Positions 20,037 through 21,734 of a DNA stretch of 64,000 nt are shown piece after piece. Below the pieces are notes generated by a model. That model searched no databases and was not told the origin of the DNA. It saw only the letters and a program-made list of their open reading frames with translations. The first letter of the stretch is position 1. Every line of letters begins with the position of its first letter. Source of the stretch: Patescibacteria group bacterium (GTDB taxonomy: Bacteria > Patescibacteriota > Patescibacteriia > UBA9934 > GWF2-40-263); NCBI GenBank assembly GCA_004297215.1, contig SCUM01000001.1:481181-545180 (forward strand). Reading direction: 5' to 3'. The position numbers and the translations under genes were made by a program.

Positions 20037-21734
20037 CTAGTACATGTCTCCCATCCCGCCTCCATGGCCCCCATGGCCGCCGGACGATTTCTCTTCCTTG
20101 GGAATCTCGACGACCGCGCATTCGGTGGTGATTACCATGATGGCAGCCGAAGCGGCATTCTGAAGTGCCGAACGTGTGACCTTAGCTGGATCAATAATGC
20201 CGGCAGCAATCATGTCTTCGTACTCGTCCTTTGCCGCGTTATAACCGATATTCTCATTTTTGAACTGTTCCTGTTCTTTTTGAATTCGTGCAAAAACGAC
20301 TTCACCGTTTTGCCCGGCATTTTCTGCAATGATTTTCAATGGAGCCACCAAAGCAGCGAGCAGAGTCAAGACACCGGTCCCTTCCGCATTTCGTTTAATC
20401 GATTGTATGGGATCTGTGTCTGATGCCACCGGTTTAAAGTAGTGCGGCAGTAGATTGAAAGCGGTGCGCATCCCCGCAATCATCAGAGCAATGCCACCAC
20501 CAGGAACGATGCCTTCTTCTACGGCCGCTCTGGTCGCGGACACAGCATCCTCAATTCGATGTTTTTTTTCTTTCATCTCGGTCTCGGTCGCTGCACCAAC
20601 CTTGATAACGGCAACGCCACCCGACAGTTTTGCTGCACGTTCAAGCAATTTTTCTTTGTCGAAATCCGATTCTGTCTGCTTAATCTGAGCGCGGATGGCC
20701 GCGATACGATCCTCAATCGCTTTTTTATCTCCCGCACCACCAACAATGGTGGTATTTTCCTTAGTCGACACCACCTTGGACGCATGACCGAGGTCTGCAA
20801 GTGTTGCTGTTTCAAGTTTTATCCCGAGTTCATCAGAAATGAGCTTGCCGCCAGTCAAAATTGCAATGTCCTCGAGCATGGCCTTGCGGCGATCACCGAA
20901 CCCAGGTGCTTTAATCGCAAGGGCCATGAACGTACCGCGCAATTTGTTTACAACAAGAGTCGTTATTGCCTCCCCATCCACATCTTCAGCAATGATGACA
21001 ATCTCCTTTTTGCCAGACTGAGCAACTTTTTCAAGCAAAGGAAGGACGTCCTGTACCGAAGAAATCTTTTTATCAGTGATAAGAATGTGTGCGTCGCGGA
21101 AATCAGCCTCCATACGATCCGCGTTGGTAATCATGTAGGGGCTGACATACCCACGGTCGAACTGCATCCCTTCGACAACATCAACTTCTACGCCAAACGA
21201 CTGTGATTCCTCGACAGTAATCACACCATTCTCCCCTACTTTCTTCATAGCCTCGGCAATCATCTTGCCGATCTCGGCATCGTTCGCTGAAATGCTGGCC
21301 ACCTTTTCAATCGAGTCACCTGCAATCGGTTTTGCCAGTTTCTTAATTTCTGCAACAACTGCCTCAGTCGCTTTTTCTACCCCACGTCGAATACCATTTG
21401 CATCAGTTCCGGCAGCAATATTTTTCAAACCCTCAGCGATAATTGCCTGTGCAAGCACCGTCGCCGTCGTCGTGCCGTCGCCGGCCACATCGTTGGTCTT
21501 GCTTGCCACCTCTTTGACCAGTTCCGCGCCCAAATTCTCGGCCTTGTCCTCAAGGTCGATCTCCTTGGCCACCGTCACTCCGTCCTTAGTGACCATCGGC
21601 GCGCCAAAACCGCGATCAAGCACCACGTTACGACCCTTAGGCCCCAAAGTCACCTTGACCGCGTTCGCGAGCTTGTCCACGCCGCGCTTGAGCGCCGCGC
21701 GCGCCTCCTCGTTGAAGATGATCTGCTTTGCCAT
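20037..21734 (-). CDS. groL: Chaperonin GroEL.
   Basis: [40 protein letters not shown]…; C-terminal [14 protein letters not shown]. The first ~95 codons are GC-rich and the remainder is about 40-48% GC. Confidence 0.95.

Follow-up and report, generated by a model that had tools for sequence, protein, structure and literature searches.

Mosaic genes that arise by homologous recombination between species are well documented, the classic case being the penicillin-binding protein genes of Streptococcus and Neisseria. In Wolbachia and other symbionts, groEL has reportedly undergone intragenic recombination as well, which involved closely related strains and left no signature in base composition. 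Patescibacteria are reported to possess genes for competence and homologous recombination, and exchange of groS, tuf and ribosomal protein genes has been described for them (PMC12455944). The present analysis concerns the groEL gene in a stretch of 64,000 nucleotides (the window) from a Patescibacteria group bacterium (assembly GCA_004297215.1, contig SCUM01000001.1, positions 481,181 to 545,180), in which the larger part of the coding sequence departs abruptly in GC content and codon usage from its own 5' end and from the other genes of the window. We propose, with a probability of roughly 0.55, that this groEL is an intragenic recombinant carrying about 1.3 kb of an unsampled, related allele of intermediate (mid-) GC content.

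The gene is an intact open reading frame of 565 codons. Its product is the same as NCBI TAK04012.1, can be aligned from end to end with solved GroEL structures (E 1e-174 to 1e-193), and keeps the nucleotide-site motifs DGTTT, IEDA and GGG as well as the Gly/Met-rich C-terminal tail. It lies directly downstream of groES in one operon, with a gap of 3 nt between the groES stop codon and the groEL start codon. The two genes, and the parts of groEL that differ in GC content and in GC content at third codon positions (GC3), are the following (window coordinates):

20037..21734, minus strand: groEL (Cpn60), Pfam PF00118, E 5e-68, residues 22-542
21738..22028, minus strand: groES (Cpn10, 96 residues), Pfam PF00166, E 8e-29; GC 0.636, GC3 0.91
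21456..21734, minus strand: native-type 5' segment of groEL, codons 1-93; GC 0.62, GC3 0.82, codon usage as in the other genes of the window
20145..21455, minus strand: AT-shifted tract, codons 94-530; GC 0.484, GC3 0.46, foreign-type codon usage
21457..21488, minus strand: 5' junction block of 32 nt, the last native-type bases, placed by the breakpoint fit and by the end of a Logan contig at 21457; its sequence is unique in the window
20037..20144, minus strand: tail, codons 531-565 and stop codon; GC3 0.74, intermediate; the protein is native-like, with a GHGGHGGGM end
21579..21650, minus strand: candidate second tract-type patch, codons 29-52; GC3 0.60, versus 0.80-0.96 in all relatives including those of mid-GC content

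An earlier, sequence-only reading of the window had described groEL as compositionally mosaic, with groES and the 5' end of the gene matching the high GC content of the genome. Sliding-window and codon-usage computations bear this out: GC is 0.620 in codons 1-93, similar to that of groES and of the whole window (0.650), drops to 0.484 in codons 94-530, with GC3 falling from 0.82 to 0.46, and is 0.593 in the last 35 codons. The interval 20221-20280, for which 38% GC had been stated, was measured at 38.3%. Ten other genes of the window, used as controls, have GC3 values of 0.78-0.92, and 93% of all 90-codon segments of groEL fall below the lowest of the 5618 such segments in these genes. The shift is also evident in the choice between synonymous codons. 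Isoleucine is encoded by ATT with a frequency of 0.70 in the tract, versus ATC frequencies of 0.91 in the remaining window genes and of 1.00 in codons 1-93; lysine is encoded by AAA (0.63) in the tract versus AAG (0.88) in native genes; and the alanine codons GCT and GCA together reach 0.60, versus 0.09 in native genes. The log-likelihood ratio (LLR) for a change point in GC3 is 19.1 with one breakpoint and 24.0 with two, and the one-breakpoint value was matched in none of 2000 permutations. For 168 other groEL genes used as controls, the median of the same heterogeneity statistic is 2.7 and its 95th percentile 8.3; only one of these genes is as heterogeneous as the gene studied here, and in the three nearest relatives the GC3 of groEL is uniform along the gene (0.78-0.98). 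The composition break is real and highly unusual. Only two other islands of low GC content longer than 400 nt occur in the window, both of them genes of mobile type with about 0.50 GC, a composition like that of the tract.

Maximum likelihood puts the breakpoint behind codon 93, which encodes the V of DGTTTATV, and the first codon ending in A or T is that of L94 (CTT). This places the junction in the conserved DGTTTATVL block, where it had been located before. The sequence at the junction node reads GTGGCCGGCGACGGCACGACGACGGCGACGGT. The block is conserved even in its nucleotides, with exact runs of 17-23 nt in common with relatives; as an exact match the complete 32-mer was absent from all seven relatives compared, and relatives of mid-GC content share at most 21-23 nt with this groEL. 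On the 3' side, the two-breakpoint fit returns to native composition at codon ~530 (window ~20144), and a hidden Markov model (HMM) using the codon usage of independent mid-GC Uhrbacteria genes extends the tract through to the stop codon; the same model calls groES native throughout. The statement that the gene stays AT-rich up to its stop is thus sustained for the break and the tract, with its 3' end left uncertain. The protein tail is 0.70-0.81 identical to that of the high-GC Uhrbacteria clade. Codons 29-52, within the native-type segment, have a codon-usage LLR of +7.7, a value reached by 0.8% of native 24-codon windows, and may represent a small second converted patch, one that the HMM does not call.

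The surroundings of the gene are conserved. All close relatives of the GroEL protein (70-76% identity) belong to Candidatus Uhrbacteria, and by these similarities the source genome is a high-GC member of that group. The gene order NusA, YidC, x, Wzy_C, (x), groES, groEL, DUF4870/MamF, RF2, epimerase, RsmA and a giant protein of ~3100 residues is common to the window, to Uhrbacteria RIFCSPHIGHO2_01_FULL_63_20 (L002) and to four more Uhrbacteria loci (51-59% GC), so that the groEL locus is in its ancestral place with native flanks. GroES is 86% identical to that of L002. The gene adjoining groEL bears locus tag EPO34_02530, and neither the list of open reading frames nor the Pfam annotation of the window contains a mobile-element gene next to groEL. 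The return to native DNA on the 3' side is marked by a gene that is syntenic in every Uhrbacteria locus examined:

19551..19883, minus strand: DUF4870/MamF-family membrane protein gene (110 residues, GTG start), Pfam PF09685; GC3 0.88; TAK04011.1

Divergence along the protein is likewise uneven. In a comparison of 119 GroELs, the first 93 residues match the family average exactly (mean identity 0.909 in both cases), and the remainder is the most divergent of all (0.695 versus 0.788 ± 0.021, i.e. 4.4 standard deviations below the mean). The product of codons 1-93 is 96-97% identical to that of the high-GC Uhrbacteria clade. Identity to L002 amounts to 0.84 for NusA, 0.85 for RF2, 0.86 for GroES and 0.96 for GroEL residues 1-94, but to only 0.75 for GroEL residues 95-531, whereas each of the six pairings of the remaining four genomes shows a central GroEL part conserved at least as much as NusA and RF2. 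Separate phylogenies of the gene parts had been suggested as a check. In neighbour-joining bootstraps the N-terminus plus tail (111 columns) grouped with the high-GC clade (P0002, P0003, P0004 and P0006) in 175 of 200 replicates, versus 54 of 200 for the tract (437 columns), which otherwise formed a long branch near the base or joined P0016. The parts appear to differ in their placement, but the best matches of both are members of the same clade. Since common neighbours of the two gene halves had been named beforehand as evidence against horizontal transfer, that reading is only half supported. Within the tract, divergence is concentrated in two stretches:

21281..21455, minus strand: residues 94-151 (equatorial/intermediate), first hyper-divergent stretch; 0.64-0.71 identical to relatives, which are mutually 0.79-0.93 identical
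Residues 152-352: 0.80-0.85 identical to the high-GC clade, whose members are mutually 0.78-0.87 identical; GC3 only 0.42-0.60
Residues 353-407: 0.85-0.91 identical to the high-GC clade, whose members are mutually 0.89-0.93 identical
20145..20513, minus strand: residues 408-530 (equatorial), second hyper-divergent stretch; 0.51-0.58 identical to relatives, which are mutually 0.71-0.83 identical

In the first of these stretches the G-x-N-P motif reads GTDA (GTDANG; codons 111-112, window 21399-21404), while NP is kept in all sequence types listed among 145 other sequences compared; the loss of this single motif leaves membership of the GroEL family unchanged. The second stretch contains two insertions that are unique to this groEL, residues 421-436 (window 20427-20474) and residues 492-496 (window 20247-20261), both in loops according to the alignment with a solved GroEL. 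Relaxed selection or pseudogene decay was rejected as an explanation, since, of 153 columns with a conservation of at least 97% in Uhrbacteria and outgroups, just four differ in the tract. With the other 149 and all ATP-site motifs retained, the tract appears to be a selected, working allele rather than a decaying one.

The tract could in principle be the lineage's own sequence, drifted in place towards AT-rich synonymous codons in a gene with a fast-evolving equatorial domain, for instance because recombination with the population had halted and GC-biased gene conversion was lost, or because selection on the equatorial domain had changed. Its nearest relatives are indeed those of the genome's own clade, the divergence of residues 152-407 from that clade is no larger than that among its members, and the excess of substitutions lies in the same two equatorial stretches that are hyper-divergent in an unrelated Uhrbacteria lineage described below. 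However, no known process lowers GC3 from ~0.9 to 0.46 over 1.3 kb with a boundary of one codon and leaves groES, codons 1-93 and all neighbouring genes at GC3 0.8-0.9. Moreover, the central residues are AT-shifted (GC3 0.42-0.60 versus ~0.9 in relatives) although their protein sequence is typical of the clade and not unusually diverged. Directional amino-acid change driven by AT content was considered as well and found to be weak, with 21 changes towards lower GC versus 16 towards higher. Divergence in place therefore seems very unlikely to us.

An independent assembly bears directly on the 5' junction. By means of the exact GroES protein, a Logan contig of 3463 nt (L174) from run SRR8426588 was found that equals window 24919-21457 with 0 mismatches, includes codons 1-93 and the candidate patch of codons 29-52, and terminates with ...GGCGACGGT, its final base (21457) being the last native one ahead of the tract. 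We estimate the chance of a random break within 2 nt of the junction at ~0.2-0.3%. The exact coincidence of the contig end with the junction indicates that the reads of this run hold two continuations at 21457. A neighbouring Logan contig of 1.4 kb (L175), which does not reach groEL, starts at one arm of a hairpin and ends inside a repeated palindromic element, so contig ends in this assembly can mark real ambiguities in the assembly graph.

This observation sharpens an alternative that had been raised at the outset, namely a chimera produced during assembly or curation of the metagenome. The true groEL would then be GC-rich throughout, and the 1.3 kb tract would derive from a co-occurring mid-GC Uhrbacteria, spliced in at conserved blocks by wrong traversal of the graph, scaffolding or gap filling. 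The allele is a singleton from one metagenome-assembled genome (MAG), the Logan assembly stops at the very base of the junction, so that the graph branches there, the end of L175 illustrates that such stops can reflect real ambiguity, and the conservation of the block at the 5' junction makes shared k-mers most probable there. A chimera would nevertheless require two mis-joins in one gene, both in frame and the second leading back to the same genome. It is unlikely that a second organism would have 31 or more nucleotides in common at each end, given that none of the seven relatives compared has the junction 32-mer, and bubble popping does not merge alleles that are 67-69% identical over 1.3 kb. 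In terms of de Bruijn graph logic, an unbroken L174 of 3.4 kb without any bases of the tract would fit one upstream sequence with two downstream continuations, a pattern that points to a population with the recombinant allele and another allele. The joining of a second organism via a shared k-mer fits less well, because L174 would then be expected to break earlier, where that organism joins, or to extend 30 nt into the shared part. Finally, six assemblies agree on a similar mosaic in a related lineage. Taken together, we consider an assembly chimera less likely than recombination, but a serious alternative to it.

The related mosaic is the groEL (P0016/P0139) of Uhrbacteria with 53% GC from the Rifle aquifer, found at the same syntenic locus (L168-L173, e.g. 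L169:3001-4704). Its GC3 is 0.58 in codons 1-151, 0.84 in codons 152-352 and 0.47 in codons 353-567 (LLR 34.7), with flanking genes at 0.53-0.66. The gene is present in six contigs from different samples and assemblers, five of them without any nucleotide difference and the sixth (L168) differing by one base, which indicates that mosaic groEL alleles occur naturally in Uhrbacteria. Its central block is nearest to a member of the high-GC clade (P0006, 0.87), residues 94-151 and 408-530 are hyper-divergent, a 24-residue insertion occupies the same equatorial loop, and GTDV replaces the NP motif. It thus resembles the groEL of the window in its locus, its abrupt steps in GC3, the position of both hyper-divergent stretches, the loop that carries an insertion and the loss of NP, but differs in that the odd block is a GC-rich centre and that the allele is reproducible in six assemblies. 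An origin of the Rifle mosaic as a splice of the sequences compared was dismissed (maximum nucleotide identity per block 0.84), as was a common origin of its divergent segments and the tract, which are 0.54-0.57 identical, no more than either is to others.

The occurrence in two unrelated lineages of a mosaic groEL in which residues ~94-151 and ~408-530 are hyper-divergent, the same surface loop has independently gained an insertion and NP is lost hints that the equatorial domain may be a hot spot. It could be that this domain is recurrently remodelled or exchanged by segments in Uhrbacteria, the tract possibly stemming from a copy borne by a phage or other mobile element and converted back; we regard this wider proposal as unlikely. 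A related possibility is that a phage or other mobile element acquired the clade's groEL, that the gene evolved on this element (lower GC, faster change, loop insertions), and that gene conversion later returned a portion of it to the chromosome. This would explain the combination of clade-typical parts, fast-evolving parts and the lack of a cellular donor. The GC content of the tract (0.484) is like that of the two genes of mobile type in the window (IS200-like 0.51, 23S rRNA-intervening-sequence protein 0.50), and this composition is the sole, weak argument in its favour. On the other hand, relatives encoded by viral contigs of IMG/VR reach at most 61% identity and mobile-element genes do not adjoin groEL in the window, so that such a round trip appears very improbable.

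If the gene is an intragenic recombinant, groES and codons 1-93 of groEL, the promoter-proximal part, would be the lineage's own DNA, and immediately behind the DGTTTATV codons some 1.3 kb of another allele, with GC3 of about 0.46, would follow, reaching at least codon ~530 and possibly the terminator. The donor would probably be a relative rather than a distant organism, since the nearest neighbours of both gene parts, and residues 152-407, belong to the same clade. It would have been an allele from that Uhrbacteria clade, possibly borne by a mobile element or phage, with codon usage of the mid-GC type. Its apical and intermediate domains would be typical of the clade and its equatorial domain strongly diverged, with the two loop insertions and without the NP motif. 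We envisage uptake of DNA, followed by strand exchange anchored in short stretches that are identical between the divergent groEL alleles, one anchor being the DVAGDGTTT block and the second lying near the ITTE block or downstream. The chimeric gene would have been retained because its product is still a complete GroEL. The break in composition and codon usage, the discordant divergence, the intact reading frame and the preserved gene order are observed directly, whereas the event itself, its direction and the type of donor are inferred.

Several observations weigh against this proposal. RecA-type exchange between alleles as divergent as these is expected to be very rare, and the tract is ~67-69% identical to the groEL genes of relatives at the DNA level. 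Residues 152-407 are not phylogenetically discordant, their distance from the high-GC clade being no greater than the distances within it, and a search with the tract alone returned the same high-GC Uhrbacteria as best matches (71%). The 3' junction is poorly defined, the sole independent assembly stops short of crossing the 5' junction, and the mosaic allele is known from one MAG only. Finally, the collections searched yielded no donor and no further copy of the tract with more than 71-75% identity. The earlier suggestion that a foreign allele had replaced most of groEL is therefore upheld as far as the sharp break and the discordant divergence from L002 are concerned, and tempered by nearest neighbours from the same clade and by the missing donor.

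The searches for a donor differed in their reach. In a collection of 5.8 billion proteins the best match to the tract was 71-75% identical; this collection holds no partial gene products from contig ends, so that fragmentary donor copies could be missed. Among the matches listed from GTDB species genomes there were only distant groELs of at most 62%, and the source genome itself was not returned. Scans of JGI metagenomes with degenerate patterns for two tract-specific peptides gave no match, and the contig index contained no entry for the exact GroEL protein. A query with residues 396-530 listed only fragments of 147-237 residues with at most 54% identity and missed the source protein (P0001) itself, which makes its sensitivity doubtful; short queries (135 residues) against large conserved families apparently favour short targets, so missing matches of this kind are weak evidence. 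Our literature search found no publication naming the accession or run SRR8426588.

The sequence-only reading had also placed a MITE-like element directly after the groEL stop codon. This had to be abandoned, as the spacer has no second copy in the 64 kb window and forms one long hairpin with a terminator at its core:

19884..20036, minus strand: groEL-DUF4870 spacer, 153 nt, long imperfect hairpin; RNA fold -55.5 kcal/mol, z = -6.8

The arms of 40 nt are 73% complementary. The core (19949-19977) consists of GGCGAAACGG-GUGAAA-CCGUUUCG followed by UUUUU, i.e. a GC-rich stem and a run of U residues, and is a predicted intrinsic terminator of groEL. The low GC content of the spacer is typical of intergenic DNA in this window and no sign of foreign origin, because hairpins of similar design follow neighbouring genes. 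Long intergenic hairpins are present at 19471-19557, after the DUF4870 gene (fold z = -5.1), and at 18288-18353, between prfB and the epimerase gene; both are made up of tandem short motifs and their complements, with different sequences, and they may be gene-specific terminators.

Other palindromic sequences occur within and beside genes of the window. The rsmA/ksgA gene (16341-17267, minus strand) contains in frame two copies of an 84-nt palindromic element (16548-16631 and 16911-16994), with the sequence GACCCC.CCATGCCTCCCCTTTCCAAGGGGAGGGTAGCGGAA.CGAGCTATCTCCCCCTTGGAAAGGGGGAGCATGAGGGGGTC, each copy encoding DP[TA]MPPLSKGRVAE[AT]SYLPLGKGEHEGV. The L002 orthologue does not have the first insert, and a Logan contig breaks inside one copy of the element. 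These inserts resemble the Rickettsia palindromic elements, which insert into coding genes. A palindrome of 17 nt, CCAACACCNGGTGTTGG, is present in seven copies where 0.02 would be expected (at 4391-4542, 5175-5227 and 24662-24777). Five of these copies flank a gene for an IS200-like Y1 transposase (4552-5199, plus strand, GC 0.51), in an arrangement like that of REP sequences and their RAYT genes, and some copies are translated as 'PTPGVG' in the N-terminal extension of the serS reading frame as listed. The second gene of mobile type (window 70-420, minus strand, GC 0.50) encodes a four-helix-bundle protein of the 23S rRNA-intervening-sequence type (PF05635); in the L169-L172 loci a member of this family closes the syntenic block.

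Two of the conserved neighbours have particular features of their own. In prfB a canonical +1 programmed frameshift site, CTT TGA C with GGGGG in front of it, lies at 19393-19399 (minus strand), upstream of the reading frame 18343-19371; the short reading frame that starts at the ATG at 19462 stops at the in-frame TGA of this site, as is ordinary for RF2. The giant Cys-rich protein (3167 residues, window 6124-15627, minus strand) is conserved in position in Uhrbacteria loci, with 3102 residues in L002 and 3223 in L167, and the HMM flags three short stretches of mid-GC-type codon usage in its gene (codons 1-63, 2322-2445 and 3106-3167).

Should the recombination be real, part of an essential and conserved chaperonin gene would have been replaced between fairly divergent lineages of the Candidate Phyla Radiation. 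Core single-copy marker genes in such genomes could then be chimeric, which would matter for the use of groEL/cpn60 as a phylogenetic and barcoding marker, and detection of horizontal transfer at the level of whole genes would usually miss such events. It would also bear on the extent of recombination in small genomes of episymbionts. If the recurrent remodelling were to prove true, an essential chaperonin would be swapped domain by domain in episymbiotic bacteria. If, instead, the tract is an artefact, it serves as a warning that a near-complete MAG contig of 842 kb can hide a foreign insert of 1.3 kb that leaves the reading frame undisrupted.

Compared with the mosaic penicillin-binding protein genes, the window groEL has in common with them foreign-type blocks in an essential chromosomal gene, breakpoints that fall in conserved stretches, an uninterrupted reading frame and natural uptake of DNA as the probable route. 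It differs in the DNA divergence between blocks, which is ~31-33% here and about 20% or less in the penicillin-binding protein genes, and further in its large GC3 contrast, in having no known donor and no evident selective agent, and in being represented by one MAG. With the exchange reported among groundwater Patescibacteria (PMC12455944) it shares the phylum, the type of habitat and the chaperonin operon as one of the loci involved; there, transfers of whole genes or islands were recognized by similarity between genomes, whereas here part of a gene is concerned and no partner genome is known. As in Wolbachia and other symbionts, groEL itself would be the recombining gene, in the present case with a clear signature in composition. 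The phenomenon, a mosaic gene, is thus known in kind, and the groEL described here is a new example of it.

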